This document shows positions 1,679-64,000 of a stretch of DNA of 64,000 nt, piece after piece (the stretch's first letter is position 1; each line of letters starts with the position of its first letter). The notes beneath the pieces were generated by a model. That model was not told the DNA's origin and made no database searches. It saw nothing but the letters and a program-made list of their open reading frames with translations. The translations under genes and the position numbers were made by a program. This DNA comes from a virus. Taxonomy: Duplodnaviria > Caudoviricetes. Location: the IMG/VR virus record IMGVR_UViG_3300021256_000066, positions 65,507 through 129,506 of that record. One strand, given 5' to 3'.

Positions 1679-2944
1679 ATGGCACAACAGACAGACAGAC
1701 AGCAGCAGATGGCACTGGCACAGCAGATGGTGAGTCAGCGGGCTTGGGTGAAGACCCCGTGGAAATATACCACGCTGGGCACGGGGCTCTCGCTGGTGCA
1801 GCAACAGGCATTGCTCATGGTCAGCGAACACCTGCAGGGCTATATCCACAAGTTCTTCGACCTAAAGCTCGACAAGGCGCACGGCAAGCCGAAGTCGCTC
1901 TTTACAGACTACGTGCTGGAACAGGGCATCCCGCCGTTCCGCATCTACCTGCAAGACCTCGGCGTGCAGCCGAACCACTACAAGGAGACGCGGCGGGTGA
2001 TTGAGGAAATCAACCTGAAGGTGGAGCACCCGGAGTTTGACGAGGACGGACGGCCTACGGGCAAGACCACGCTGACCAACGTCTTTTCGCAGTTCGGCTT
2101 TGAGGACACGGGCGACTACTACCACTTTACCGACGATGACGGCAAGCGCCAGCCGGTGATGATGAAGCAGCCGTATATCGATGTCAAGATCAATCCCGAC
2201 GTGGCGATGTGGGCGTTCGATATGTCACAGGGCTACGTGAGCCACCTGAAGATGATTGCACTCTATGCCACCAAGCGGCCTACACCGCGTGTCTATCTGC
2301 TGCTGATGCGCGAACTAAAGCGCGACCAGGCGAGAGCCGACATCCGCATACCGCTGTCGGAGCTGAAGGAATATCTGGGCATCGTGCCATATACCGACCG
2401 CAAGACGGGCGAGGTGATTACTCCCTATCCGATGTTCCGCTCGTTCAGGCAGAAGGTGCTCGATGCCGTGCAGCAGGACTTGCAGCGCATGGCACGGGAG
2501 GTGCCGCCGCAGACCGACATCACCTTCACCTACGACCTGTGCTACCCCGGACGGCGCAAAATGGGCGACCCCGACGCGATACTCTTCCACGTGGAGCGCA
2601 CCAGCCTGGGCATGGCCTACGGCATCGTGGTGAGCAAGGCGCGGTTGCCGGTAGAGCCGGATATGTTCGCCACCGACCCGCAGCAGCAGCCGTATCGTGA
2701 CGCTTTCGGACGGATGATGGCCGAACTGCTCGCCGTGGCTAAGACGGAACAGGCTCGCGAGGTGTTCCAGTCGCTGCGCTTCGAGCACTATGACGAAGCA
2801 AGGCATACCGTGCTGGTGAAACTGACCGACAAGCGGCACTACGACTTCCTGGAGAGTGCCGCCGTGCGTCCGCATTACCTCGCTGCCCTGCGACGGCACT
2901 TCAGCGACGATGCCGTGCCGCTGTATCGGTTGCCGAAGGACTGA
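1679..2944 (+). CDS. repA: Plasmid replication initiator, Rep_3/RepA family
   Basis: LSLVQQQALL...DVKINPDVA...RVYLLL...IPLSELKEYLG...YPMFRSFRQKVLD...DITFTY pattern; ATG 1679 follows an AT-rich leader. Confidence 0.82.
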   Translation: MAQQTDRQQQMALAQQMVSQRAWVKTPWKYTTLGTGLSLVQQQALLMVSEHLQGYIHKFFDLKLDKAHGKPKSLFTDYVLEQGIPPFRIYLQDLGVQPNHYKETRRVIEEINLKVEHPEFDEDGRPTGKTTLTNVFSQFGFEDTGDYYHFTDDDGKRQPVMMKQPYIDVKINPDVAMWAFDMSQGYVSHLKMIALYATKRPTPRVYLLLMRELKRDQARADIRIPLSELKEYLGIVPYTDRKTGEVITPYPMFRSFRQKVLDAVQQDLQRMAREVPPQTDITFTYDLCYPGRRKMGDPDAILFHVERTSLGMAYGIVVSKARLPVEPDMFATDPQQQPYRDAFGRMMAELLAVAKTEQAREVFQSLRFEHYDEARHTVLVKLTDKRHYDFLESAAVRPHYLAALRRHFSDDAVPLYRLPKD

Positions 2945-2963
2945 GGCGCATCATTTTGCGGTG

Positions 2964-3001
2964 GTGACGAAAACTATCCCTCACGGGATGACTTTCGTCA
3001 C
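2964..3001. terminator. Stem-loop after rep (terminator or REP-like hairpin)
   Basis: GTGACGAAA..ATCCC/GGGAT..TTTCGTCAC inverted repeat; no clear U-tract. Confidence 0.4.
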
Positions 3002-3053
3002 GACTCGGCAGAGCTGATGCGGGCATCGCTCTGCGCTCGCTGCTCCGAAAGTT

Positions 3054-3087
3054 GTCCCATTTTTTATTTTCTTAATATTACCTTTGC
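3054..3087 (+). promoter_or_regulatory. Putative late promoter GTCCCA-N19-TACCTTTGC
   Basis: Bacteroidetes -7 element TAnnTTTG at 3079-3086; same upstream GTCCCA as at 54195 and 58611. Confidence 0.55.
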
Positions 3088-3100
3088 CAAAGAAAGATTT

Positions 3101-3838
3101 ATGAAACCGATTTTTGATATGAACAAGACAAAGCAACTATTACGCGACATCGCGGCCATCTGGCGTCGGCGATGGGAACACACGAACTGGACGGCGGCGC
3201 TGACATGGGTCGTGGGCGGCATCCTGACGGCGGCTGCCTACGTGCTGGTCGTGTCGGTCATCATGGGCATGCTCAGTTCGTGCGCCACGAAAAAGGAACT
3301 CCACGAGCATCACCAGCACACCGTCAGTGCCGACACGCTGGCCCAGGAGGCCCGTCACGACAGTCACACCAGCCATACGACCGCCAACATCGACTCGCTC
3401 GTAACGGCCTCCGTCTGGGCGGCGATGCAGGAGTTCGTGGCGCAGGAAAAGAGCATGGAGACCACCACTGAGACGATCACGACCTGGGTGGACTCGCTCG
3501 GAAGGGAGATGCGGCAGGAACAGCGCACCACGCAGCGCGAGCTCTCGCGGCAGGAACAGCAGCGCTGGCAGCAGACCGAGGCACGCTGGCAGAACGAGCT
3601 CCACCAGACGCTGCGGCAGATGGACTCAACGTGGAGCGACCGCATCAGCCGCTTCGAGAGCCACCTGCGCGACTCGCTCAACCACGAACTCAGCAAGCAG
3701 ACCGAGACCAGCGGCGCACCCGCCCTCACGTGGTGGCAGCGAATGTGGCAGTGGCTCAAAGGCATCCTCGCGGGTGTCGCCATCTGTGGCGCCCTCTATC
3801 TTACCCGCCGTTTCTGGCAGCCTCTCATCAAACGGTAA
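3101..3838 (+). CDS. Lipoprotein with C-terminal TM helix; candidate unimolecular spanin
   Basis: Hydrophobic segment ending in lipobox-like LSSC, coiled region, C-terminal WWQRMWQWLKGILAGVAICGALYL. Confidence 0.55.
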   Translation: MKPIFDMNKTKQLLRDIAAIWRRRWEHTNWTAALTWVVGGILTAAAYVLVVSVIMGMLSSCATKKELHEHHQHTVSADTLAQEARHDSHTSHTTANIDSLVTASVWAAMQEFVAQEKSMETTTETITTWVDSLGREMRQEQRTTQRELSRQEQQRWQQTEARWQNELHQTLRQMDSTWSDRISRFESHLRDSLNHELSKQTETSGAPALTWWQRMWQWLKGILAGVAICGALYLTRRFWQPLIKR

Positions 3839-13749: not shown

Positions 13750-15441
13750 ATGGGAATAACAGTGTTAATTGTATTCGTACTTGCAATAGCAGGGGCAATC
13801 GTGTGGTTCTTCATCAAAAACAAGAAAGAGCCGAGTGTTCAACCGGAGAAGCCATCAGAGGCTGCCTCACAGCCTTCAGCGCCACCTGTGGATGACACAT
13901 CAGCGCAACAAGAACAGCCGAAGGAAGAACCGAAGGAAGAGGTAAAGGAAGAGCAGAAGCCAGTGGAGGAAGAGAAACCAGTGGTCTCCAAGCCAAAGCC
14001 TGATGACAAACCCAAGCCCATTCCCTTTGATGACAAACCAAAGTATGACGAGGAGTTTGAAGGCTACCTTGACAAGTATAGCCAATTTGCTAAGATAGAG
14101 AGGGATTCTTATACATATAGATACTTCTATGAGCTGTTCATAGAGGCAAAATCACAGTTGCGGATAGACACTTCTCATGGGTTGCCTATCCTTCTGAAAC
14201 AAGAAAACTTTCCCACTCTCTACGAATGGGGAGACGAAGGCGATCCAAAGAAAGCACAAGACTCTCTTATTGGCTGGCTATTCGCTCTGCAACTTGCAGA
14301 ACTGAAGCCCTATTACAGGGCAGACATCTTCAAGGTAGGCTATGAGATGGGTGGCTATGATAAGTATTCTAATATCTACGGCTATAAGTTTGAACTTGAC
14401 CCGAATGTTATGCGTATATTGGCTGGTGCGATCTACCCCGCAATGAAGGGTTTTTGCAAGCCAGTGACGGAGACTCTGAGAAGAGAGGTGGAAGGCTCAA
14501 AGTATAGCAAGACATTAGGTCAGCTATACACAGATGAGAAACGTGATAACGTGGCACCGAGTGGATTCTTTACTGACTTCCGTGTGTTCATGCCTACAGC
14601 ACCGGCTCCATACCTCTCCACATACAGCAAGAGAAGCGACAGGACTTATCCCAATGAGCCGAGGGATGAGTATGACAATCTCAAGATTGACCGCCAGATT
14701 CACGAAATGATAGTAGAGGCATACAACCTCAATCAGCCAGAGCACTACCAGGAGGTAGTGCAAGCCATAGCCGACAAGGAGGCTAAGAAAGAGCACCTGT
14801 TTGGTAAAAACGTTAATACAAAGCATTATCACTTCCACCCTGTATTCGGTGAGGACACGATTGGTGTTGAACTACCCTATGATGGTGTACTTGGTGACTT
14901 TGCATACCTATGCCTGCAGACCGGCAGCGCATCAAGGGGAATACTACAGAGTGCCACGATTACACCTCCGCAGTATGGCAGATTAAGACCTGGGTGTAGT
15001 TGGAGTCAAGAGGCAAAGAAAAACTCTAAAACTGACGACAGGAGGAATATCCTCACTAACTTTGAGATTGAGGATGGTGATGGATCACCAACAGGCTACT
15101 ATGACAAGAATGGTAACTGGGTATATATGAACGGGATTCATAATCCCGCAGAGTTTGAAGAGTACCAGAAGACACATCTATATGCCAACTCATATCCAAG
15201 TGGTCATTCAAGTGGTATGTTCTGCTGTTCAATGGTATTGATGGAACTGATGCCCAACAAGGCAGACCTTATTCTGAAAGCTGCCAACCAATATGCAGTG
15301 AATCGCACGATTGCCCGTTACCACTGGACATCGGACACTATCAACGGAAGGGTGCTTGGAAGTGCCACCAATGCAATATGCCATGCGGCGAGCGACTATT
15401 ACAAGATGCTGAAAACCATCGAGAAAGAGTTGTCGTGTTAA
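13750..15441 (+). CDS. Membrane-anchored PAP2/class A acid phosphatase-haloperoxidase superfamily protein
   Basis: N-terminal TM, P/E/K-rich linker, motifs YGRLRP, SYPSGH and RTIARYHWTSD. Confidence 0.82.
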   Translation: MGITVLIVFVLAIAGAIVWFFIKNKKEPSVQPEKPSEAASQPSAPPVDDTSAQQEQPKEEPKEEVKEEQKPVEEEKPVVSKPKPDDKPKPIPFDDKPKYDEEFEGYLDKYSQFAKIERDSYTYRYFYELFIEAKSQLRIDTSHGLPILLKQENFPTLYEWGDEGDPKKAQDSLIGWLFALQLAELKPYYRADIFKVGYEMGGYDKYSNIYGYKFELDPNVMRILAGAIYPAMKGFCKPVTETLRREVEGSKYSKTLGQLYTDEKRDNVAPSGFFTDFRVFMPTAPAPYLSTYSKRSDRTYPNEPRDEYDNLKIDRQIHEMIVEAYNLNQPEHYQEVVQAIADKEAKKEHLFGKNVNTKHYHFHPVFGEDTIGVELPYDGVLGDFAYLCLQTGSASRGILQSATITPPQYGRLRPGCSWSQEAKKNSKTDDRRNILTNFEIEDGDGSPTGYYDKNGNWVYMNGIHNPAEFEEYQKTHLYANSYPSGHSSGMFCCSMVLMELMPNKADLILKAANQYAVNRTIARYHWTSDTINGRVLGSATNAICHAASDYYKMLKTIEKELSC

Positions 15442-15821: not shown

Positions 15822-18104
15822 ATGCGAACTATTTTGCTATCACACAACAAGACAGCCTACGAGAAGGTGATGCGGGCATTCGAGACGAGCCGCATGACCT
15901 GCGTGTGCCACCCGACGGGTACGGGCAAGTCGTACATCGTAGCAGCCGTGGCGGAGTCGTTCGACAAGGTGCTGATACTGGCACCCAACAACTTCATACT
16001 CCAGCAGCAGAAGAGCATCCTCGACTGGCACGGTGGCATCGACTACCGCAACTATTCTTGGCTGATTAAGAACGTATGGAATGTCACTGAGAAGTACGAC
16101 CTGATAGTGCTCGACGAGTTCCACCGCGCCGGTGCCCAAGAGTGGGGTGCTGCCGTCTCCCTGTTGTTGGAGAGTCAGCCGCAGGCGAAGATATTCGGTA
16201 CGTCGGCAACCCCCATCCGCTATTCCGAGGATGAGCGCGACATGAGTGACGAGCTGTTCGACGGCCATGTGGCCAGCTATATCACCATTGCCGAGGCATG
16301 GACGGTTTACAACATCCTACCAATACCTCGCTATGTCAGTGGACTGTTCCGATGGGACAAGACTATCAGCGAGGCACAGGAGCGCATTGAGCGCAGCCGT
16401 AGTCTGAGTGACAAGGAGAAGCGCGAGCGCATCTTCCGACTGAGCAATAAGCGACTCGACTGGGATTTGTCGTATGGGATGCCGACTATTCTGAAGAAGC
16501 ACATGGATAAGGATGCCCGTCGCGTCATCGTGTTCTGTGCCCATATCGAGGACTTGGAGCAGATGCGTCAGCAGGTTTGCCGTTGGTTCCGCGAGGCGGG
16601 CTTTACTATTGCCAGCATCAGCATCCTGCACAGCAAACTAAAGGATAGTGAACAGCACGAGCAGATGAACAGATTCGAGGACGATAGCACTGATGGCGTT
16701 AAACTGATGTTTGCTATTGACATGCTGAACGAGGGCATCCATGTGCCCAATGTCAGTGCGGTCATCATGCTCCGTACAACCGAGAGCCGTATCATCTATA
16801 TGCAACAGATGGGGCGTTGTCTGACCGCTGCCAACACAGAGAATCCGCTGGTATTGGATATGGTGGACAACATCACCACAACGACGGCCATCAAAGACTT
16901 GCAGATTGAGTTTGACCGCTTGGAGCATATACAGGCCGAGCGCGAGGGACGCGAGCCCCGCAAGTTTGAGGTAATAGATTATACGCTGGGGGTTCGTGAC
17001 CTTATCAGTAAGCTGGTTCCTCAACGGGTCGTGATGACCGCCGATGAACGTCTGGCACTGGTCAAGCAGTTTATCGCAGACAACGACCGCCAACCCGTTC
17101 AAGGTAAGGATAAGGAGATGTTTGTTCATTGGCGGTGGCTCTGTATGTATGCCGCCGATAACGAAGAGGTTAAAGCACTCCGCCGCAAGTATGGTTATAT
17201 ACCTGTGACGATAGACGAGGCAGTAGCCGAATTAGAGGCTTATCATCAGCGCACAGGACTGTTTCTGTCGTTTCCCAACCAAAGAGAAAACAAGGAGGTT
17301 GAACGGCTGAGCGGAATATGGCAGCGGCTGCGCAGGAATCATCCGAATCACCCCGTAGTGTCTGCGTGGCTGAAACGGCTGGAAGAGCAGAAGGCCGCGA
17401 AGTTCACAGAGACGATGCAGAAGGTCAGGCAGATGGCTGAACGTGGCGAGAAGTTCATGAAGACCAACGAATATCTGTTTCTGCACCGCAACTATGCTGA
17501 CCACCCAGAGTTTGTGGCTTTCTACAAGCAGTATTGTAAGCAGAATGTCATCATGACCGTTGACGAACATCTGGATGTGCTTGATGCGTTCTGTCATCAT
17601 ACTGACCGGCTACCAACCCATGAGACCGACGGACAGGCATACAACTCGTATAACTATCTGCGGCGGCATTGTGCTGATCATCCACGACTGAAAGCCATCG
17701 TTGAGTGCTACCATAAAGACAACAAACTGGCACGTCGCAGGGCAGAAGACCTGAAAGCCATCGAGCAGTTTTATTGCGAGAACGGCTACCTGCCGCTGAC
17801 ACGCACATCACTCGGTCTGAGATGGTCGAGACTAAAGCGGTCATACCCCGATGACCCTGACGTGCAGCGCATCGAACAGAACTGCCGCTATAAGCAGACC
17901 CGTACAGCCTATGTGAAGGAGGATGTTCGGATATACTGTGAGATGAACGGCGAACTGCCGACGAAAACAAAGAACCGCCAGCTTTACAATCAATGGCGCG
18001 GTCTGCGTATGCGACATCCACACGACCCAGACGTACTGGACCTGATTGCCAAATACGGTAATCCAAGACAACAGCCAAGGAAGAATAAACAAAAGCAAAA
18101 ATAA
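15822..18104 (+). CDS. SF2 (ResIII/DEAD-like) helicase with C-terminal helicase-associated-like repeats
   Basis: PTGTGKS, LDEFH, SATP, DMLNEGIHVP, QQMGR; repeated ..LP...W..LR..HP.DP.V units. Confidence 0.88.
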   Translation: MRTILLSHNKTAYEKVMRAFETSRMTCVCHPTGTGKSYIVAAVAESFDKVLILAPNNFILQQQKSILDWHGGIDYRNYSWLIKNVWNVTEKYDLIVLDEFHRAGAQEWGAAVSLLLESQPQAKIFGTSATPIRYSEDERDMSDELFDGHVASYITIAEAWTVYNILPIPRYVSGLFRWDKTISEAQERIERSRSLSDKEKRERIFRLSNKRLDWDLSYGMPTILKKHMDKDARRVIVFCAHIEDLEQMRQQVCRWFREAGFTIASISILHSKLKDSEQHEQMNRFEDDSTDGVKLMFAIDMLNEGIHVPNVSAVIMLRTTESRIIYMQQMGRCLTAANTENPLVLDMVDNITTTTAIKDLQIEFDRLEHIQAEREGREPRKFEVIDYTLGVRDLISKLVPQRVVMTADERLALVKQFIADNDRQPVQGKDKEMFVHWRWLCMYAADNEEVKALRRKYGYIPVTIDEAVAELEAYHQRTGLFLSFPNQRENKEVERLSGIWQRLRRNHPNHPVVSAWLKRLEEQKAAKFTETMQKVRQMAERGEKFMKTNEYLFLHRNYADHPEFVAFYKQYCKQNVIMTVDEHLDVLDAFCHHTDRLPTHETDGQAYNSYNYLRRHCADHPRLKAIVECYHKDNKLARRRAEDLKAIEQFYCENGYLPLTRTSLGLRWSRLKRSYPDDPDVQRIEQNCRYKQTRTAYVKEDVRIYCEMNGELPTKTKNRQLYNQWRGLRMRHPHDPDVLDLIAKYGNPRQQPRKNKQKQK

Positions 18105-54827: not shown

Positions 54828-57539
54828 ATGAGAAGCCATTTGGAACTGAAGATTGACGGGCAGTGGCAGGCGCTGAAGCCCGACCAGAAACTGAGCATCG
54901 AGGAACCGTCGCCGCTGTGGAACGACACGCCGATGTTCTCGCAGCCGTTCACGCTGCCCTTCCGCTCGAACAGGGCGCTGCTGGGCAATGCCGACGACCC
55001 GAACAGCGACCTGCGGGCAACGGACTTCGACCGCAAGCAGGCACTGATATATGCCGAGGGCATCCCCTTCCGCTCGGCGGTGACGCAGGTGCAGGAGGGA
55101 GAGGTGATGGCCGACGAGCTGGCTATCAACCTCGACGCATCGACGCGCTCGTTCGACGACCTGATAGGCGACCTGAAGTGCCAGGACATCCCGATGAAAG
55201 ACCGCATACAGGTGGGAGAGAAGATCGGCAACGTGCATGTGGAGGTGAAGTACGACTACAGGATTACCGTCACCTATGAGGGCAAAAAGGGCGACGAGGA
55301 ATACTCCTACGACAAGGACGAGGCGAAGGCCGACTTCGAGCCTAACGTGACGGGATTCAGCTATCCGGGCCTGTGCCAGGTGACGGGCACGAAGCAGGTG
55401 GCGGTGATGAAGACCGAGAAGGTATATCCCAAGGGCGAGAAGGTAAAGGTGCCCAAGGAGAAGTACGGCTACCAGAACTCGACCTTTATCAACGTGACCG
55501 ATGCCTACGGCGAGAACAGCGACCACTGGGGCGAGGGCGGTGCGAAATACTGCAATGCCCGCGTAGCCTACTTGCATAAAGGACTGAACGAGGACGGCAC
55601 ATCGTCTGACGACGTGATCAGTCTGAAGGAATACAACCAGCAGGTGGGCGACCAGTACGAGAGCGTCTATCCCTACTGGGTGCTCGATGCCGACCGCCCC
55701 GCCAGCGGACTCTGCTTCTACGTGCTCTACTTCCTCGACTGCCTGTTCGCCTACCTCGACGTGGAGTTCGACAAGACGGCTTTGCTGGCCGTAGAGGACC
55801 TGAAGCACCTCTGCTTCTTCACCACCCACGTGCGCTATGACACCGAGGAGGTGGCGGGCTATCCGACGCTCACCACGATAGACGATGTGAACAAATGGCT
55901 GGAGAGCCGTGGCTGCGACGGCAGGCTGAAGATGGACGATCCCGAGCCGAAGTCGATACAGGAGTTCAAATATGACGTGAACCACAGCGGTCACTTACAG
56001 ACGGTGAAAGTCGGACAGAACGAGGTGGCCAGCATCAAGACCGAGGTGACGTCGATGCGCATCAAGGCGTTCAGTGCGAAGATCCTGGCGATGATAGCCA
56101 ACTCAGACAACTTCCCCGACGAGAGTGTGAAGACCATCCTCGACTCGCTGGAGGCATCGTTCGGCATCCGCTTCGACTACGACTACGAGCGCCACAAGGT
56201 GACGGCCTATCTGCTGCGAGACGTGCTGCGGAGCCAGGAAGAACCCGTCACGTTCAACGGCAAGGTGCGCCGCATGGAGAAGGTGGCCGAGAAGATTACG
56301 GGCTTCCGCATGAAGTATTCCGCCGAGAGTACGCCCAAGGAGCAGGAGCAGTATATCCGCCGTCAGAAGCGCGACTACGACACCGACTTCGACTACCGCG
56401 AATACCCCGAGGGCCGCGTCGTCATCGACAAGACCTACGAGGACATAGCTACCACCACGGGTGCCAATAATACGAATGTATATGTCGATCTGACCACGGG
56501 CGACGCCTTCAGGTTCAAGGTGAACAAGGAGACGGGCAACGACCCGCGCCTGTTCGAGGTCGGTCAGTTCAAGGGCGTAGAGGTGGGCGACTGTTCGGTG
56601 GAAGCCGAGGAGGACGATACCATCCGCGAGTACGTCTCGGACTTCCAGCCGATGTCGTTCAACGACGTGAACGCCTACAACCGCATCTCGGCCAACTCGA
56701 AGAAGCAGGTGGATGTGGAGAAAGGCGGCAAGGTATATACCTTCTCAAACTTCAAGAGCGGCGACCAGCCGATGCTCGTGGCCTATATCGACGAGGACAT
56801 GGAGCATGAGTTCGTGGAGCATAAGATCAACAACCCGCTGTCGGCGATACTGACCGACATCTACTGCAGCGAGGTGATGAGTGGCATCGAGAGCTACGAC
56901 CCGAGCGACACCGACGAGGGCGAGTCGCCCCTGCAGACCTACGACTGGGGCCTGGCGGTGGCGATGATGCGCGGCGGCGGCACCGATATGGAGATACAGC
57001 GCTACGACCCCGGCTACGACGGCTGCGGCAACGACAAGTGGCGCACCGTGGCAGGCGAGTATGCGCTGACCACCGACACGATGGACGCGATGGGCAACGT
57101 GTTCGATTATAACGGAACCCACGAGGGCATCGGCGATGGCGAGCGGTTCTCGCTGAAGATCACGGGCTACCGCCCCTTCCGCTACAAGTATGTCGGCGGT
57201 CAGCTCAGAATCAGCACCAACCCGAAGGAGTGGGGCGACCCGTCGTGGCTCGTGCCCTGCGACAGCGACGTGGAAGACCCGCAGCACCGCATTCAGGAGA
57301 AGATACGCTCGCGCGGACTCTATGACTCGTTCATGAGCGAGCTCGCCCATTTCCTCTTGAACCGCAAGCCCTACAAGGTGTATGTCGATTGCACCGTGGC
57401 CGAGCTGATGGACATCCCGAACCACTGGAAGCGTCGCTGGCGCTTCGGCGACAAGGTGGGCTACATCAACAAGGTGAACTACGATCTCTCGGTGGAGGAA
57501 GCCCTCACCGAGGCCGTCATCGAGTTCTACGCATTGTAA
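54828..57539 (+). CDS. Putative tail/baseplate protein (903 aa)
   Basis: LSIEEPSPLWN...FSQPFTLP N-terminus, acidic composition, gene position. Confidence 0.65.
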   Translation: MRSHLELKIDGQWQALKPDQKLSIEEPSPLWNDTPMFSQPFTLPFRSNRALLGNADDPNSDLRATDFDRKQALIYAEGIPFRSAVTQVQEGEVMADELAINLDASTRSFDDLIGDLKCQDIPMKDRIQVGEKIGNVHVEVKYDYRITVTYEGKKGDEEYSYDKDEAKADFEPNVTGFSYPGLCQVTGTKQVAVMKTEKVYPKGEKVKVPKEKYGYQNSTFINVTDAYGENSDHWGEGGAKYCNARVAYLHKGLNEDGTSSDDVISLKEYNQQVGDQYESVYPYWVLDADRPASGLCFYVLYFLDCLFAYLDVEFDKTALLAVEDLKHLCFFTTHVRYDTEEVAGYPTLTTIDDVNKWLESRGCDGRLKMDDPEPKSIQEFKYDVNHSGHLQTVKVGQNEVASIKTEVTSMRIKAFSAKILAMIANSDNFPDESVKTILDSLEASFGIRFDYDYERHKVTAYLLRDVLRSQEEPVTFNGKVRRMEKVAEKITGFRMKYSAESTPKEQEQYIRRQKRDYDTDFDYREYPEGRVVIDKTYEDIATTTGANNTNVYVDLTTGDAFRFKVNKETGNDPRLFEVGQFKGVEVGDCSVEAEEDDTIREYVSDFQPMSFNDVNAYNRISANSKKQVDVEKGGKVYTFSNFKSGDQPMLVAYIDEDMEHEFVEHKINNPLSAILTDIYCSEVMSGIESYDPSDTDEGESPLQTYDWGLAVAMMRGGGTDMEIQRYDPGYDGCGNDKWRTVAGEYALTTDTMDAMGNVFDYNGTHEGIGDGERFSLKITGYRPFRYKYVGGQLRISTNPKEWGDPSWLVPCDSDVEDPQHRIQEKIRSRGLYDSFMSELAHFLLNRKPYKVYVDCTVAELMDIPNHWKRRWRFGDKVGYINKVNYDLSVEEALTEAVIEFYAL

Positions 57540-57561
57540 CACACAAAAACATCAAGATATC

Positions 57562-58605
57562 ATGGCATCGAACTTACAACTTATCAGCGGTTCGCCGCTT
57601 ATCGGTTCGCCGATAGTCTATCAGGTGAAGGCAGGCTCGCCCGTGGGCGACGTCACCTTCCAGCGCGTGAAGCTCTACGTGTCGGCAGGACTGTCCACCG
57701 ACGGTGTGATGCGCCGCTACCCGCTGTCGCAGCCTGCCCAGAAGGGTGAGACGGTCAGGATCGACATCTCGTCGGCACTGCAGGCCGCCGCCGACAGGTA
57801 TGAATATTCAGCCGAGCCGCCCACCTATTACCCCTATGTCGAGTTCACGCTTGAAGCCTGCGACGAGTACATGCAGAACGGTCAGAACTCGGGCGACGTG
57901 GGTATCGTGACCAACCCCGGGGGCCGTGCGCTGATGGGCAGCTTCTCAGACTTGGAGCGGTTGCGGGCGCAGCAGGCAGGTCGCAATACCACGAAGTTCT
58001 CGCGTAAGCCCAACGGACAGGCATCGGTGGAGATAGTGACAGTGGGAGAGACCTACCTGCGGGCAGAGCCGATGAGCATGGGCATCGCCACCATCCAGAA
58101 CGGCCCGCGCATGAGTCAGTTCGCCATCGCTGGTGAGGGGCTGCACACGCTGTCGGTAGGCAGCGAGAGCATCAAGGTGTATGCCGTGCCCGATTCGCCC
58201 GACCGCTACTGGCTGCGGTTCGTCAACGGCCTGGGCGTGGTCGAGTCCGTCAGCGTCGCATCGCTCGTCAGCGAGGAAGTCAATTATAAAGTGTCGGAAT
58301 ACGTCGTGGCGCGTCAGGAGCTGTTCAATCAGGTGAGCCGTGGTGCGGTCATCAAGCAGAACGACCAGGAGCGGCTGAAACTCTCCAGCGGTCCGATAGA
58401 CCGCCTGTGGCAGCAGTGGTATCTCCATGAGCTGCTGCCGACCCCAGCGGCATGGATATGGATCGACGGGCTGTGGATTCCCTGCCACATCGTGCCCGAG
58501 GAGACCGTGAGCGGCATCAGCCGTGCCGACGGCAAGCTGCTGGAGGTGCAGTTCACCGTGCGTCTCGACATCAGCGGCTCGCCCTATGCGGCACTCGCCA
58601 TCTGA
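57562..58605 (+). CDS. Putative tail-associated structural protein
   Basis: LRFVNGLGVVESV...LSSG...WYLHELL; lies between tail genes. Confidence 0.6.
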   Translation: MASNLQLISGSPLIGSPIVYQVKAGSPVGDVTFQRVKLYVSAGLSTDGVMRRYPLSQPAQKGETVRIDISSALQAAADRYEYSAEPPTYYPYVEFTLEACDEYMQNGQNSGDVGIVTNPGGRALMGSFSDLERLRAQQAGRNTTKFSRKPNGQASVEIVTVGETYLRAEPMSMGIATIQNGPRMSQFAIAGEGLHTLSVGSESIKVYAVPDSPDRYWLRFVNGLGVVESVSVASLVSEEVNYKVSEYVVARQELFNQVSRGAVIKQNDQERLKLSSGPIDRLWQQWYLHELLPTPAAWIWIDGLWIPCHIVPEETVSGISRADGKLLEVQFTVRLDISGSPYAALAI

Positions 58606-58662: not shown

Positions 58663-61600
58663 ATGACGGAAGCCAAGCCACAGAACTACTGGATCAGTCC
58701 GACCGCACTGAAGATTACGCTCAATGCGCTGTCGGATGCCGACTATATGCAGGCCAGTGCTGCCAGCGGGGCGATGATTATGTGCTATATGCGCGGCATC
58801 GACGGACTGGAGTACGACCACGGCCACAACTACAAGCGCTGGCCGCTGAAGATATCGCCGACCTACTTCACCACGACCACGAGGAAGTATGTGTATATCC
58901 GCATACCGAAGCCCGCCGCCGACTTGGCCGATGTGGACGCCGACACGGCACTGGTGGTCTATCCCTCTGAGCGCGTCGATATCTACGGCATGACCGAGGA
59001 CGGACGGCAGCTGCTCGACGCATCCTTTTATTATATATACACGCAAGGTATCATCTCCGCGTCGGAGCCCACCGCCGAGGGACTGCGCCGCCGATGGGAA
59101 CAGGACATCGTGACCGGCACGCTGGCCAGCGACGAGGCCACCGAGGGGGGCGGCACGGGCGAGTGGTGGCGCTACGACCCCATCACCGACATGGTGACGT
59201 TCCTGAAGACCATCGCCTCGGCTACCTTCGAGTATCTGAAGGCCGCACAGGCCGAGATACACCACCTGAATGTGACGGGTATCTTCGATGCCGTAAAGGG
59301 CTATATCGACGACCTCAGAAGCCACAACTACCAGTCGGGACTGCTCGACGGCAGTGGTTTCCGTCTGACCAACGACAACGGCGAGGGCGCCTCGGAGCTG
59401 GAGGTGGACTTGCTGAAGGTGAGGAAGAAGGCCACGTTCATGGAGCTTGAGATCCGCGAGGAGACGTTCGTCGGCGGCAACCAGCACTACTCGCCTGCCG
59501 GTTCGACCATCTACCGCGTGGAGTATATGGATGAGAACGATCAAGCCATCGGCTATACCGTGATGAAGGTGCCCTTCCTGCTGAAGCGGTTCGCCTTCCT
59601 TGGCAGGATGTTTAACTATGCCGCCCGCAAGCGCATCCGTCGCCAGCTGTCATCCGAAGAGTGGCGGCAGGTACACCATTTCCGCTGCTACCTGCTCGCC
59701 GACGATGGCACCACAGCCACCCGCAACTGGTGGAAGGTGGGCGACCAGCCGCGCTGTCAGACCTTCAACAAGGCGGTATCGGCACAGAACAAGCGCGACA
59801 ACCTGTATAACTGGAAGCGCGACCATACGGGCGACGACCCTTCGACGCCGATGCCCGACTACACCACCATCGAGGGACCGTTTGAGACCGCATACTACTG
59901 GCGCCTGTGCTCGAATGTCGGCAGCGAGAAGCTCGACGATGGGCATGCCTACGACTTCATCGACATGCCATACGAGGGGTGGCCGGGCTACTCGGAGACC
60001 GACAAGCGCTCTTTCCGTGATGCAGGCTCCGGCATTCCCGTGGCGGGCGACACCATCGTCTGCATGGGCAACCGCACCGACCCGGAGCGTATGAACATGA
60101 TTTCGCTCTATACCAGCGGCAACGACAACAACCCGCCTGCCATCAAGGGCTACCGGGGCATTCACACGTTCAAGATTAATCCCGAGAACAAGGTGTTCGA
60201 GATCTCGCCAAACGAGTTTCTCGTCCGTTCTCGCATGTTCAAGCTGCTCGATGACTCAGACTATGAGTTCCCCGTGCCTCTCGAACGTGGCGAGTGGCAG
60301 CAGGGTGTGCGCTACCACTGGTATGACCGCGTGTCGTGGAAAGGCTCTATCTGGCTCTGTCAAGTACTCGATGACTATCTGTGGGAGGATGCCGCCGGCA
60401 ACAACTACGAGGGAAGCAGCGTCACGGACATCGAATACGGTGAGGGCGAGTTTGAGTATGCCACTGGCAAGACCGACCACTACTACCGCACAGGCCGCGT
60501 GAACGGCACTCAGGTGTATTACATCAGATATTATACCACCTCGGAGCCCGACCGCAACAACGAGCTGTGGCTGCGCGAGGTCAGCAAGGGCACCGAGATC
60601 GTGAGCAGCGAGATACACTATGCTGCCTCGCTCGACGGCGTGAACCATCCAGATGACGAGGACACGGGCGGCATCGACCCGTCAACGGTCGTCGTGCCCG
60701 ACGCGATGAAGTCGCAGACCACGGCGCTGTTGTCATCGTTTGCCCAGGCACTGGCTCCGACGGCGGTGCCAGTCGCGGGTTCGGCCACCCACGAGTACCT
60801 GTCGAAGCTCTACTACGAGGCACGGAGCCAGTATTACGACGGCACGTCTCCCTACGGACTGCCGCTGCTGTTCAGAAAAGAACTCTTCCCGTCGCTGACG
60901 GACTACTACGGTACGGACAGCAACCCCGACGGTGCCTTCAGCGCACTGGCAGGCGTACTCTTCGCGATGGTGCTCTGTGAGCTCCGTCCCGACCTGCACA
61001 ATGCCGTATGGAAGGCCGGCTACAACCTCGGCGGCGACAAGACGACGTTCATCTACAAGTATCGGTTTGAGAGCGACCAGAATATCGCCCGCATGGTGGG
61101 CTCAGTCCTGTGGGCTGCGATGCGTGGCATCATACAACCAGACACCAAGACCATGCAGCGCGAACTTGGCGGCAGCGACCTCGGAATCACCATCCGTGAG
61201 GTCTCTGACCGTCCGTTCGCCGATTACAAGGACACTTATTACATCGACCTGACGCAGTTCATGCCAACGGCACCAGGCCCGTACCTGACAGGCTACACCG
61301 ACCGCAGCAGCATCGGCGGTGTGCCCTACGACGCCTACGACCTGGCCGACCACAACCTTCAGCAGGACCTCGACATCTACAATCTCGTGGTGAGCGACTA
61401 CAACCTCGGTGGCTCGCACCATCAGGAGGTCGTGCAGGCGATTGCCGACAAGGAGATGGCGATGGCCCACCTCTTCGGCAGGAACCGCAGCCAGAACGGC
61501 TACTCGTTCCACCCTGTCTTCGGCACCGACACCATCGGCAAGGAGATTTCCGACAGCGGTGCGACGGCCTCGTTCGTGTCCGACATCGCCAGCATCGGTC

Positions 61601-64000
61601 GCGGCCTGCGCCGCCCGCTTCAGCTCGGTGCCTACTACGGTCGTCGCCGCCCGGGACAGTCGGAGACCGACGGCGTGTCGAAGAGCGGCGCGGCGGGCGT
61701 GCTGATGGACATGACCATCGACAACATCGACGGCAGTCCGTCTGGTTACGGCCGCGAGGGCGACTACAATACCCATGAGGCCAACAGCGTCCCTGCCAAC
61801 TCCTATCCGAGCGGTCACTCAAGTGGCATCTGGGCCGTAGCGCTGATGCTCATAGAGGCGATGCCGCAGAAGGCCGCACTCATCATGAAGGCCGCCAACA
61901 CCTACGCCATGAACCGTCAGATAACGCGCTATCACTGGAACTCCGACACCATTCTCGGACGTGTGGCCGGTGCTACCATCGCCCCGATGATGCGTGCGTC
62001 GTCAGACTGGCCCGTGCTCTTCGCCGCCGCCAAGGCCGAACTCGCCCAGGGCAGCGGCAGTGCGTGGAAGACCACCATTGAAGAGACGGGTATCTCGATG
62101 GGTAAGTATCTCTGGACGCGCACCACCATCCACTACGACGATCCGAACGACCCCGACCGTGAGCCGACACGCGAGTACAGTGTCGCCCGTTGGGGAATCG
62201 ACGGCGACGGCATTGCCGAGATCGACTCGCTCTATCTGGCCACGTCGAACGCGGCGCTGGTCATCGACACGCAGGCCGACACCTATCCGAAGCCGGGCGA
62301 CGCAGGCTGGGAACAGGCTGGAAGCCAAGCCAAGTGGTATGCCACCTTCGGCGATGCGGCTGCTGCCAACGGCGGCGTCGGCGCAATGCAAGGCTGGAAC
62401 GTATGGGAGAAGACCATCATCAAATACGATGCCTACAACACGGACGGCACCAAGAAGACCGTGCCCGACCTCGTAAACTACCGCTGCTCGCGCATCGGGC
62501 AGGACGGACAGATCGGCGAGGAGGAATACTATATGCTGGCCGAGAGCGACGACTTTGCCACCGTGTTCGGCTCGCTGACGCCCGCCTACAGCAGGATAGG
62601 CATCCGCTGGTATAATCAGTCGAACCCTGCCGCAGAGCGCTGGCGTCTCAGCGACACCACGCCGAACATTAACACCCAGATGTGGAGTGCCGTCATGCCT
62701 ACCTATAATAAAGACGTACATGGCAAGAAAGTCTATCTCTGGAACTTCGAGCAGTGTGTCGATGGCACGGGCACGGAGTATGCCACGCGGCCCGTCTGTA
62801 TCGGCAACCATGCCCGTGGCATCAAGGGAGTCATCGAGCTCTATGCCCTGTCGGCAAGCCAGACACCCGTCAGCGCCGAGCGCCCCATCCCTGCCGACAT
62901 CAACGCGAAGAACCAGTGGGGCGTCATCCCGACCAGCGGTTTCAGCGACCCGCAGGTGTGGGGCGACGAGAAGTACGACCGTGCCCCGACCGAGGCGCTG
63001 CCCTATCAGTGGAACTGGACGCGCACGCTCTACTCGTCGAAGGATGCAGAGGGCAAGGACTACGAGGACCACTACCACGTCAGTGCCGTGCGCGGCACCC
63101 GTGGCGAGGACGGTGCAGGCATCGAGTTCATCTACTGCCGTCCGCAGTCGCACAATGCCGACGGCACGCCTATCGCCGTGACCGTGCCAGACCCGAACGT
63201 GAAGAAGGACGCTGGCGGCACCGCCCGCACAGCGGAATACATCAAGACCCACGACGACTTCGTGCCATACCAGTGGACCGACAACCCCGTCGGCATCGAC
63301 TTCCTGCACCAAGTGGAGTACCGTGCCGAGCGCAAGTCGTCGGCAGTCAGTGGCACGGGCGGATTCACCGGTGGTCACGAGTGGGGACTTTTCTCTGCTG
63401 CTGCCGTACACTCGAAGTGGGGCAAGAACGGTCAGGACGGCGACGGCGTGGAGTATGTCTATATCCGCACGGCCACGAAGAGCGCCCCGACCATCACCAA
63501 TTCGAGCGACACCTACGGCGGCAAGACCTACCTCGACGACGACTACCTGCCGCTCAGCAGCGCAGGCCGATGCACCGACGATCCTGTCGGCACCAGCCAC
63601 GACCTGCCCTATGAGTGGGTCTGCAAGCGCACCAAGGCCGCCCCGAATGCCGAGACGGGTGCCCGTCAGTGGGAGAAATATTCTGGCGCAATGGCGCTGT
63701 GGGCGAATTTTTCCGAGAGCATCACGAAGAAGAGCGAGAGCTACCGCTATGCGACGAACAACACCGGCACAAGGCCTGCGGCATCGTCATCCGACTGGAA
63801 GACCACGAAGCCGACGCTGCAGAAAGGCTACTGGCTCTACACCGAGACTACCATCACCTGGAGCGACAACTCGACCACCGTGCTTTACACCGACGAGCGC
63901 AACCCGAACGACGGTGTGGCCGGTCAGGATATCATCGTTGATGGCTCGACAGAGATGAAGTACTACGTGGGCGACTCGAACACGTCGCACCCTGCCGAGT
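58663..64000 (+). CDS. Giant tail fibre/host-specificity protein (>1779 aa, 3'-truncated) with an embedded PAP2 phosphatase domain
   Basis: No stop seen from ATG 58663 to the window end, hence absent from the ORF track; ELEVDLLKVRKKATFMELEI, GKYLWTRTTIHY / GYWLYTETTITW repeats, GxDG collagen-like joints; PAP2 motifs at ~61636-61947. Confidence 0.85.
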   Translation, partial: MTEAKPQNYWISPTALKITLNALSDADYMQASAASGAMIMCYMRGIDGLEYDHGHNYKRWPLKISPTYFTTTTRKYVYIRIPKPAADLADVDADTALVVYPSERVDIYGMTEDGRQLLDASFYYIYTQGIISASEPTAEGLRRRWEQDIVTGTLASDEATEGGGTGEWWRYDPITDMVTFLKTIASATFEYLKAAQAEIHHLNVTGIFDAVKGYIDDLRSHNYQSGLLDGSGFRLTNDNGEGASELEVDLLKVRKKATFMELEIREETFVGGNQHYSPAGSTIYRVEYMDENDQAIGYTVMKVPFLLKRFAFLGRMFNYAARKRIRRQLSSEEWRQVHHFRCYLLADDGTTATRNWWKVGDQPRCQTFNKAVSAQNKRDNLYNWKRDHTGDDPSTPMPDYTTIEGPFETAYYWRLCSNVGSEKLDDGHAYDFIDMPYEGWPGYSETDKRSFRDAGSGIPVAGDTIVCMGNRTDPERMNMISLYTSGNDNNPPAIKGYRGIHTFKINPENKVFEISPNEFLVRSRMFKLLDDSDYEFPVPLERGEWQQGVRYHWYDRVSWKGSIWLCQVLDDYLWEDAAGNNYEGSSVTDIEYGEGEFEYATGKTDHYYRTGRVNGTQVYYIRYYTTSEPDRNNELWLREVSKGTEIVSSEIHYAASLDGVNHPDDEDTGGIDPSTVVVPDAMKSQTTALLSSFAQALAPTAVPVAGSATHEYLSKLYYEARSQYYDGTSPYGLPLLFRKELFPSLTDYYGTDSNPDGAFSALAGVLFAMVLCELRPDLHNAVWKAGYNLGGDKTTFIYKYRFESDQNIARMVGSVLWAAMRGIIQPDTKTMQRELGGSDLGITIREVSDRPFADYKDTYYIDLTQFMPTAPGPYLTGYTDRSSIGGVPYDAYDLADHNLQQDLDIYNLVVSDYNLGGSHHQEVVQAIADKEMAMAHLFGRNRSQNGYSFHPVFGTDTIGKEISDSGATASFVSDIASIGRGLRRPLQLGAYYGRRRPGQSETDGVSKSGAAGVLMDMTIDNIDGSPSGYGREGDYNTHEANSVPANSYPSGHSSGIWAVALMLIEAMPQKAALIMKAANTYAMNRQITRYHWNSDTILGRVAGATIAPMMRASSDWPVLFAAAKAELAQGSGSAWKTTIEETGISMGKYLWTRTTIHYDDPNDPDREPTREYSVARWGIDGDGIAEIDSLYLATSNAALVIDTQADTYPKPGDAGWEQAGSQAKWYATFGDAAAANGGVGAMQGWNVWEKTIIKYDAYNTDGTKKTVPDLVNYRCSRIGQDGQIGEEEYYMLAESDDFATVFGSLTPAYSRIGIRWYNQSNPAAERWRLSDTTPNINTQMWSAVMPTYNKDVHGKKVYLWNFEQCVDGTGTEYATRPVCIGNHARGIKGVIELYALSASQTPVSAERPIPADINAKNQWGVIPTSGFSDPQVWGDEKYDRAPTEALPYQWNWTRTLYSSKDAEGKDYEDHYHVSAVRGTRGEDGAGIEFIYCRPQSHNADGTPIAVTVPDPNVKKDAGGTARTAEYIKTHDDFVPYQWTDNPVGIDFLHQVEYRAERKSSAVSGTGGFTGGHEWGLFSAAAVHSKWGKNGQDGDGVEYVYIRTATKSAPTITNSSDTYGGKTYLDDDYLPLSSAGRCTDDPVGTSHDLPYEWVCKRTKAAPNAETGARQWEKYSGAMALWANFSESITKKSESYRYATNNTGTRPAASSSDWKTTKPTLQKGYWLYTETTITWSDNSTTVLYTDERNPNDGVAGQDIIVDGSTEMKYYVGDSNTSHPAE

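Follow-up and report, generated by a model that had tools for sequence, protein, structure and literature searches.

Why does a giant phage tail fibre carry an acid phosphatase-like domain within one of its repeats? The question is raised by the last gene of a 64,000-nucleotide stretch of DNA (hereafter the window), which comprises bases 65507-129506 of the 129,506-bp virus record IMGVR_UViG_3300021256_000066 from IMG/VR (CheckV completeness 100%). The host of this 129-kb tailed phage is a rumen Prevotella-type bacterium. An earlier reading of the sequence (hereafter the original prediction) had proposed that a complete PAP2/acid phosphatase domain is spliced into a repeat module of the tail protein and strips or binds phosphate on the host surface. 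We find that the insertion is real, under purifying selection and optional among orthologous fibres, that its predicted fold is of the class A acid phosphatase type, and that it probably acts, displayed on the virion, on phosphoesters of the host envelope. The fibre gene and the split module are organized as follows:

58663..63999, + strand: giant tail-fibre gene, first 1779 codons; the open reading frame (ORF) is open at its 3' end, runs past the contig end and resumes at the record start
60598-62136, + strand: whole split repeat module, residues 646-1158
60598..60660, + strand: N-terminal half of the split module, IVSSEIHYAASLDGVNHPDDE, with beta-strand 1 and the start of the loop (from the translation and the model of an insert-less orthologue)
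60661..62064, + strand: insert of 468 aa, residues 667-1134, consisting of short linkers, a pseudo-PAP2 and a PAP2 unit (from orthologue comparison)
62065..62136, + strand: C-terminal half of the split module, SAWKTTIEETGISMGKYLWTRTTIHY, with the end of the loop and beta-strand 2 (from the translation, the orthologue and the model)
63739..63861, + strand: intact copy of the same repeat module, SYRYATNN...WKTTKP...GYWLYTETTITW, residues 1693-1733

An optional insertion in a fibre repeat module

The original prediction placed an interruption of about 460 aa at approximately 60660-62045 and an intact copy of the module near 63740-63860. Both are present, as are all the strings that it quoted, and the borders given above were refined by comparison with P0040, an orthologous fibre of 2099 aa that lacks the insert. 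P0040 is 69% identical to the window fibre before the site and 64% after it, and across the site it reads ...HYAASLDGLNHPADDSADWKATIAATGVSMGKYLWTRTTIYY... with nothing in between; its 106.9-kb genome (G001) encodes the counterparts of window residues 1-667 and 1133-1689 contiguously. Tail homologues thus exist both without the insert (P0040 type) and with it (P0003 type). P0003, a 2612-aa protein from a public collection, represents the full-length fibre and is 100% identical to the window protein across all 1779 residues.

The stretch with both junctions is present in 18 public runs, drawn from eight studies of sheep, goat and bovine gut. Furthermore, single contigs from two other studies cover the entire 60300-62400 region with 30-36 substitutions and no indels, additional contigs bridge each junction on its own, and a homologous insert occupies the same site in relatives at 54-98% identity from other sources. 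Given that contigs from independent studies span both junctions, and that relatives carry the same insert, a chimera at the insert borders is excluded. The G+C content at third codon positions (GC3) is 0.818 in the insert and 0.808 and 0.809 in the flanks, with no compositional break at the borders. Variation is predominantly synonymous, at 34 of the 40 best-supported variant sites overall and at 23 of 26 within the insert.

The insertion site lies between the motifs YAAS(L/F)DG.N.P and WK...G.YLW.R. In all insert-less fibres, exactly 24 residues separate the motifs flanking the site; the domain is hence optional and is gained or lost with precision. In the scaffold tree, calculated with the insert excluded, the presence of the insert requires at least two changes, and the insert-less P0040 groups with the insert-bearing P0006 (support of 97 in the Shimodaira-Hasegawa-like approximate likelihood ratio test, SH-aLRT). 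A model of the segment from the insert-less orthologue (predicted local distance difference test score, pLDDT, 76.5; predicted template modelling score, pTM, 0.38) contains a strand at positions 95-106 ending in ...HYAASL, a 27-residue loop (107-133), the strand YLWTRTTIYY and a third strand, which would place the insert in the loop between strands 1 and 2 of the module. The fibre includes at least 10 modules of this kind, with loops of about 8 to 60 residues as read from the translation, and this range suggests that the loop is naturally permissive.

The identity of the protein as a fibre is indicated by its C-terminal third, which matches the PHROG tail and tail-fibre families 2189, 6468 and 19556 (E = 1.7e-10, 5e-8 and 2.4e-7, respectively) as well as a virion structural protein PHROG (8e-17), collagen-like repeats and a family of collagen-like minor tail proteins. 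The insert is retained in relatives at 88-98% identity, which carry three different C-terminal tips and have total lengths of 2103-2777 aa, an exchange of tips that appears typical of fibre mosaicism. Distant relationships link the N-terminal region to large Crassvirales proteins, to a Bacteroides phage protein and to a 2685-aa 'tail protein'. Neither a signal peptide nor a transmembrane (TM) helix was found in the giant fibre protein.

Fold and active site of the insert

The insert comprises two domains, of which the second carries the three motifs of the PAP2 superfamily:

60673..61197, + strand: N-terminal helical domain, residues ~671-845, a degenerate PAP2 half without catalytic residues (hhalign; outside the class A alignment)
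61198..62055, + strand: catalytic class-A-type acid phosphatase (PAP2) domain, residues ~846-1131 (VIA-align, Foldseek)
61636..61653, + strand: motif 1, YGRRRP, with R994, R996 and P997 conserved (module alignment)
61801..61818, + strand: motif 2, SYPSGH, with S1050, G1051 and H1052 invariant and P1049 present (module alignment)
61915..61947, + strand: motif 3, RQITRYHWNSD, with R1085, H1091 and D1095 invariant (module alignment)

The assignment to the PAP2/class A acid phosphatase superfamily, as originally proposed, is confirmed by several approaches. Pfam PAP2 (PF01569) matches residues 1038-1109 with 33.7 bits against a cut-off of 27.2, and phmmer searches against the PDB sequences retrieve solely class A non-specific acid phosphatases (NSAPs; best E = 3.5e-12). 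An AlphaFold2 (AF2) model of the insert, obtained from a 29-sequence alignment, has a pLDDT of 87.9 and a pTM of 0.88 over residues 671-1131; the flanking module halves are disordered when modelled in isolation. The model aligns to Salmonella PhoN (2a96) with a Z-score of 21.8 and a root-mean-square deviation (rmsd) of 2.3 Å over 209 of 217 residues (model residues 197-485; VIA-align), the superimposable part beginning at about residue 842. The Z-score is 20.4 for Escherichia blattae EB-NSAP and PhoC and about 10 for vanadium haloperoxidases and membrane PAP2 enzymes, and the top Foldseek matches of the insert model are all class A NSAPs. The model thus predicts the same fold as in the class A acid phosphatases, which are soluble and cofactor-free. 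The score against the NCBIfam PhoC profile NF045654, 72.6 bits, is below the cut-off of 430, indicating a distant relative rather than an orthologue of PhoC. Among the viral structures of BFVD, the cassette had no significant match.

The claim that a complete PAP2 domain had been inserted holds for the fold, which is present in full, but the insert is larger than that, since a degenerate PAP2 half precedes the domain. In hhalign comparisons, residues 763-835 of the N-terminal half align to residues 1055-1127 of the catalytic half (probability 97.2%, E = 3.3e-11, 71 columns), suggesting that the cassette is a tandem in which an active-looking PAP2 half comes after a degenerate one. Within the catalytically dead half, Asp805 (61075-61077, FESD) is conserved in 108 of 109 modules, a hint that the active site or the binding of the substrate involves the pseudo-domain as well.

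Conservation was counted over 109 distinct modules, of which 57 reside within large proteins. R994, R996, S1050, G1051, H1052, R1085, H1091 and D1095 are present in all 109 and P997 in 108, and the catalytic residues are likewise 100% conserved in the 57 modules within large proteins. From the alignment with EB-NSAP, Arg996 and Arg1085 are predicted to bind phosphate, His1052 to act as the general acid, and His1091 to be the nucleophile with Asp1095 as its partner. Two additional arginines are conserved, R983 (106/109) and R1089 (108/109), and the leading Ser of motif 3 is Asn in the window, with Ser in 51 and Asn in 38 of the 109 family members. The original statement that all three PAP2 motifs are present stands as far as the three strings are concerned; what is missing is the canonical Lys of motif 1, replaced here by Gly989, although the motif keeps its Arg-Pro pair and an Arg at position -2.

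The closest structural counterparts of the catalytic domain, namely, Salmonella PhoN (2a96/2akc), EB-NSAP (1d2t) and PhoC (9qcj), share with it the soluble all-helical PAP2 fold (Z 20-22, rmsd 2.3-3.0 Å over ~210 residues, 22-24% identity), an identical PSGH, the R/H/D of motif 3 and the Arg-x-Arg-Pro of motif 1. Unlike these secreted 25-kDa periplasmic enzymes, the insert is a domain of a 2600-aa fibre, is preceded by the degenerate duplicate half, contains ~80 extra loop residues, and has lost the motif-1 Lys while gaining R983 and R1089. The two-PAP2-unit architecture is shared with tandem secreted class A acid phosphatases of Prevotella and other Bacteroidota (~460-520 aa; for example, the P0143/P0200 cluster, named 'acid phosphatase [Prevotella sp.]'), which come from the host clade, and these cellular proteins are likely evolutionary kin of the cassette. 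However, in the cellular proteins both halves retain K-x6-RP, PSGH and R-x5-H-x3-D, whereas the first half of the phage cassette has lost all of them.

Distribution of the cassette and genomic context

An exhaustive phmmer search with the cassette recovered 667 cluster representatives at E <= 0.001, of which 61 reach E <= 1e-30. In a census of architectures, 113 hits covered the full-length module, corresponding to the 109 distinct sequences. Approximately 60 of the 113 are located inside or at the end of large proteins devoid of TM helices, with at least eight unrelated N-termini, and 11 have other architectures; the remaining 42 are membrane-anchored, as discussed below. Judging from these comparisons, the cassette appears to be a mobile family recurring in many phages. 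It is found at 21 IMG/VR loci, including phages of 412-435 kb, yet a tblastn search against 50,697 GenBank phage records yielded zero matches. PHROGs returned nothing for the stand-alone copy in the window or for scaffolds of the L007 type, P0017, P0021, P0023 and P0073.

The site of insertion varies. As in the window, the cassette occupies the loop of a YAAS...YLW module in P0017 and P0018; in P0052 it lies in the loop of a second module type, and in the L007/L008 type it precedes a GDT.V...TDPER motif. It is C-terminal in P0021-P0025, P0022 and P0073 and N-terminal in P0069 and P0080. In the second fibre scaffold (L007:8927-14089 and L008), the cassette stands directly upstream of the GDTFVR.DNETDPERKGLM motif; a homologous motif is uninterrupted in the window fibre, at residues ~462-480. 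Related scaffolds therefore appear to have taken up the cassette at different sites. Two further carriers resemble tail proteins in their other domains: P0022 has Collar and tail-fibre PHROG matches, and P0026 combines a Peptidase_S74 chaperone domain with numerous tail-fibre PHROG matches. The 3370-aa P0054 contains three copies of the cassette (residues 760-1314, 2274-2762 and 2758-3211), and P0020 contains a single full copy plus fragments.

Beyond phages, the full cassette was found in only about ten of 185,579 species genomes, mostly of rumen Prevotella. The cellular versions of the whole cassette (L038:5824-7362 in Prevotella sp. ne3005; L037, L040-L042) are lipoproteins of ~505-518 aa; in the isolate ne3005, the gene adjoins dnaK and genes for a glutamate symporter, an outer-membrane barrel and a DD-carboxypeptidase. 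In the module tree, with the root set by a distant outgroup, the Prevotella lipoproteins form a single clade nested among phage sequences. The window insert belongs to a clade of 18 modules (SH-aLRT 99), all embedded in fibre-like proteins of several scaffolds, and the nearest sequences outside this clade are membrane-anchored forms. Overall, the tree requires at least six switches, all with strong support, from the 'large protein' context to the 'anchored' one or back.

The window also encodes a second, stand-alone copy of the cassette:

13750..15441, + strand: stand-alone paralogue P0188, 563 aa, with a TM helix, a Pro/Glu/Lys-rich linker and the cassette, 43% identical to the insert

P0188 matches Pfam PAP2 with 39.3 bits and is 90% identical to a protein encoded on a contig that was assigned to a Prevotellaceae metagenome-assembled genome. 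Positive charges follow its TM helix, the linker is TonB-like, and the gene adjoins that of a DNA helicase (15822-18104). The possibility that the insert is a recent copy of P0188 is ruled out by the 43% identity, by the position of the two on opposite major branches of the module tree and by the difference in GC3 (0.82 versus 0.50). Nor do fibre and membrane copies form an obligatory pair, given that complete or nearly complete genomes hold just one of them: G003 (100% complete) has only the fibre copy and G005 (92% complete) only the membrane copy.

The two phosphatase genes reflect a strong split in codon usage within this single genome (GC3 of 0.81 in the fibre gene versus 0.50 in the stand-alone gene; window GC 0.54), the GC-rich part being 54-64 kb. 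The fibre gene also contains the ends of the record. The last 285 bases (window 63715-63999) correspond to bases 175-459 of the record start (L003) at 96.8% identity, and record bases 1-154 match bases 889-1042 at 98.7% identity (L003, genome 1-1060), indicating that the record was linearized within tandem repeats of the fibre gene. When the contig is wrapped, the fibre is 2469 aa long, versus 2612 aa in the public full-length form; hence, the repeat number has probably collapsed in the assembly.

A diversity-generating retroelement (DGR) is located ~4 kb downstream of the fibre gene, at the genome start just outside the window. Its 199-nt variable and template repeats (L003:7084-7282 and L003:8231-8429) are 91% identical, with every mismatch at a template adenine, and the variable repeat forms the 3' end of the target ORF (L003:6204-7271, 355 aa). 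The target is followed by a reverse transcriptase-like ORF (L003:8241-9662) with a weak match to reverse transcriptases (E = 3.4e-6). The presence of a DGR-diversified gene at this distance marks the region as a host-recognition cluster.

Possible roles of the fibre phosphatase

We consider it probable that the insert is a virion-displayed fibre phosphatase that hydrolyses phosphoesters of the host envelope. Display on the virion and action on phosphoesters are inferred from the invariance of the catalytic set, the fibre-embedded clade and the general practice of tail enzymes. The 460-aa cassette would protrude sideways as a knob from the loop that joins two beta-strands in a single shaft repeat, its degenerate PAP2 half lying against the complete histidine acid phosphatase of the class A type. 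Exposed on the particle, the domain would cleave phosphoesters of the host envelope through a phospho-histidine intermediate. Candidate substrates are the phosphates of lipopolysaccharide (LPS) and lipid A, a phosphorylated capsule or glycan, and phospholipid or sphingolipid head groups. Hydrolysis might expose the receptor that the distal tip binds, or generate it; alternatively, the enzyme might use catalysis to grip the surface transiently as the fibre scans it. Class A NSAPs are metal-independent and have an acidic-to-neutral optimum, and such an enzyme would suit an extracellular particle in the rumen. The original suggestion of a virion-displayed domain that strips or binds phosphate on LPS, capsule or surface glycans is plausible.

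Known tail enzymes cut sugars, peptides, acyl groups or, in phages of Gram-positive bacteria, teichoic-acid phosphodiesters. The fibre phosphatase would resemble depolymerase tailspikes, esterases and glycerophosphodiester phosphodiesterase (GDPD) domains in being an enzyme grafted onto a tail protein to act on a surface polymer, but differs from them in fold and chemistry, in the Gram-negative Bacteroidota host and in its position in a shaft loop rather than in a spike body. GDPD is a metal-dependent TIM barrel, whereas PAP2 is a metal-free histidine phosphatase with a covalent intermediate. Nevertheless, GDPD domains in the tail modules of phages infecting Gram-positive bacteria cut teichoic-acid phosphodiesters (PMC10194240), so that phosphoester bonds can be a target of tails. 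The same survey of tail lysins lists no phosphatase (PMC10194240), and our literature search combining PAP2 or acid phosphatase with tail fibre found no description of such a domain, only names such as 'PaP2' and unrelated mentions. This suggests that, whereas a virion-associated surface enzyme is a known idea, acid phosphatase chemistry on a fibre would be new.

Several observations weigh against a virion-displayed phosphatase. The canonical Lys of motif 1 (position -7 in K-x6-R-P) is variable or gapped throughout the 109 modules. This Lys is a phosphate ligand in PAP2 enzymes; its loss departs from the definition of the family and may reflect a different substrate. Together with the gain of Arg983 and Arg1089, it suggests a substrate other than the small phosphomonoesters of PhoN and PhoC. 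The insert is located in the proximal to middle part of the shaft (residues 667-1134 of ~2600), away from the receptor-binding tip, and orthologous fibres function without it. The fold of the module itself, as modelled for the orthologue, had no PDB match by Foldseek. Finally, the commonest phage form of the cassette (42 of the 113 hits) consists of a TM helix at the N-terminus, a linker rich in Pro, Glu and Lys, and the cassette at the C-terminus; because this form is the most frequent, and one copy is present in the window, the family is not purely one of tail enzymes, and its main function may be within the infected cell. The missing Lys, the mid-shaft site, the dispensability of the insert and the anchored paralogues keep two alternatives alive, namely, a binding function and an intracellular or periplasmic one.

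In the first of these alternatives, the pocket would act in a lectin-like manner, recognizing a phosphorylated group on the surface, turning over little or none of it, and so adding to the avidity of the fibre. The loss of the motif-1 Lys and the conserved R983 and R1089 around the pocket are compatible with such a module, and a position on the shaft rather than the tip would fit an auxiliary adhesion site. We nevertheless regard binding alone as unlikely, because it requires neither the nucleophilic His nor the general-acid His nor the charge-relay Asp, which are invariant in 109 of 109 modules.

Less probable still is that the cassette is chiefly an accessory enzyme of the infected cell, involved in phosphate scavenging for DNA synthesis or in envelope remodelling, with the fibre copies as mere passengers. 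This would be in line with the approximately 42 TM-anchored stand-alone modules, including the one next to replication genes in the window, with the lipoprotein and tandem secreted class A relatives in Prevotella and with the dispensability of the insert among orthologues. It is opposed by the 18-member clade found exclusively in fibre-like proteins with conserved catalytic residues, by the persistence of the insert at the same site down to 54% identity, by the synonymous variation within the population and by the complete phage G003, which has only the fibre copy.

It is very unlikely that the giant protein is not a virion fibre and instead serves the infected cell as a large secreted or surface protein of another kind. 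The upstream neighbours (54828-58605) have no PHROG or Pfam match, and the N-terminal 640 aa, and more broadly the N-terminal two thirds, match only PHROGs of unknown function. However, the tail-fibre and virion-structural matches of the C-terminal third, the collagen-like repeat, the modular tips, the distant relative annotated as a tail protein and the absence of a signal peptide and TM helix all argue for a fibre.

A vanadium-dependent haloperoxidase appears highly improbable: these enzymes belong to the same superfamily, share the active-site residues, have an inactive related helical bundle ahead of the active one and are among the structure matches, but the structural similarity is far weaker (Z about 10 versus 20-22 for class A phosphatases), the sequence matches are all acid phosphatases, nothing indicates vanadate or peroxide chemistry, and peroxide chemistry would be improbable in the anoxic rumen or gut. 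The probability of an assembly chimera is negligible, for although the contig ends within repeats of the fibre gene, the insert junctions are spanned in independent runs and studies, the insertion recurs at the same site in relatives at 54-98% identity, and GC3 is continuous over the borders.

A more far-reaching, and rather doubtful, extension of the virion-displayed phosphatase is that phages of Prevotella and other Bacteroidota interact with the host surface by removing phosphate, a mode so far undescribed. In this scheme, the fibre enzyme would edit a phosphorylated receptor or shield during adsorption, and the membrane-tethered paralogue, made in the infected cell, would edit the same group from within. 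The membrane copy would then exclude superinfection or prevent progeny from sticking to debris, and the pair would be analogous to the receptor-destroying enzymes of animal viruses.

Prevotella is the dominant genus of the rumen and a major one in the gut, with few cultured phages. If the fibre indeed carries an active histidine acid phosphatase, this would be a new chemistry in phage adsorption and would point to a phosphorylated surface structure of Prevotella as a receptor or barrier. The cassette appears self-contained, cofactor-free and graftable into loops or onto either end of at least eight scaffolds, which makes it an easy target for expression and assay and illustrates how plug-in domains are engineered into fibres in nature. 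For studies of host range, natural fibres that have or lack the insert would offer a ready-made comparison.

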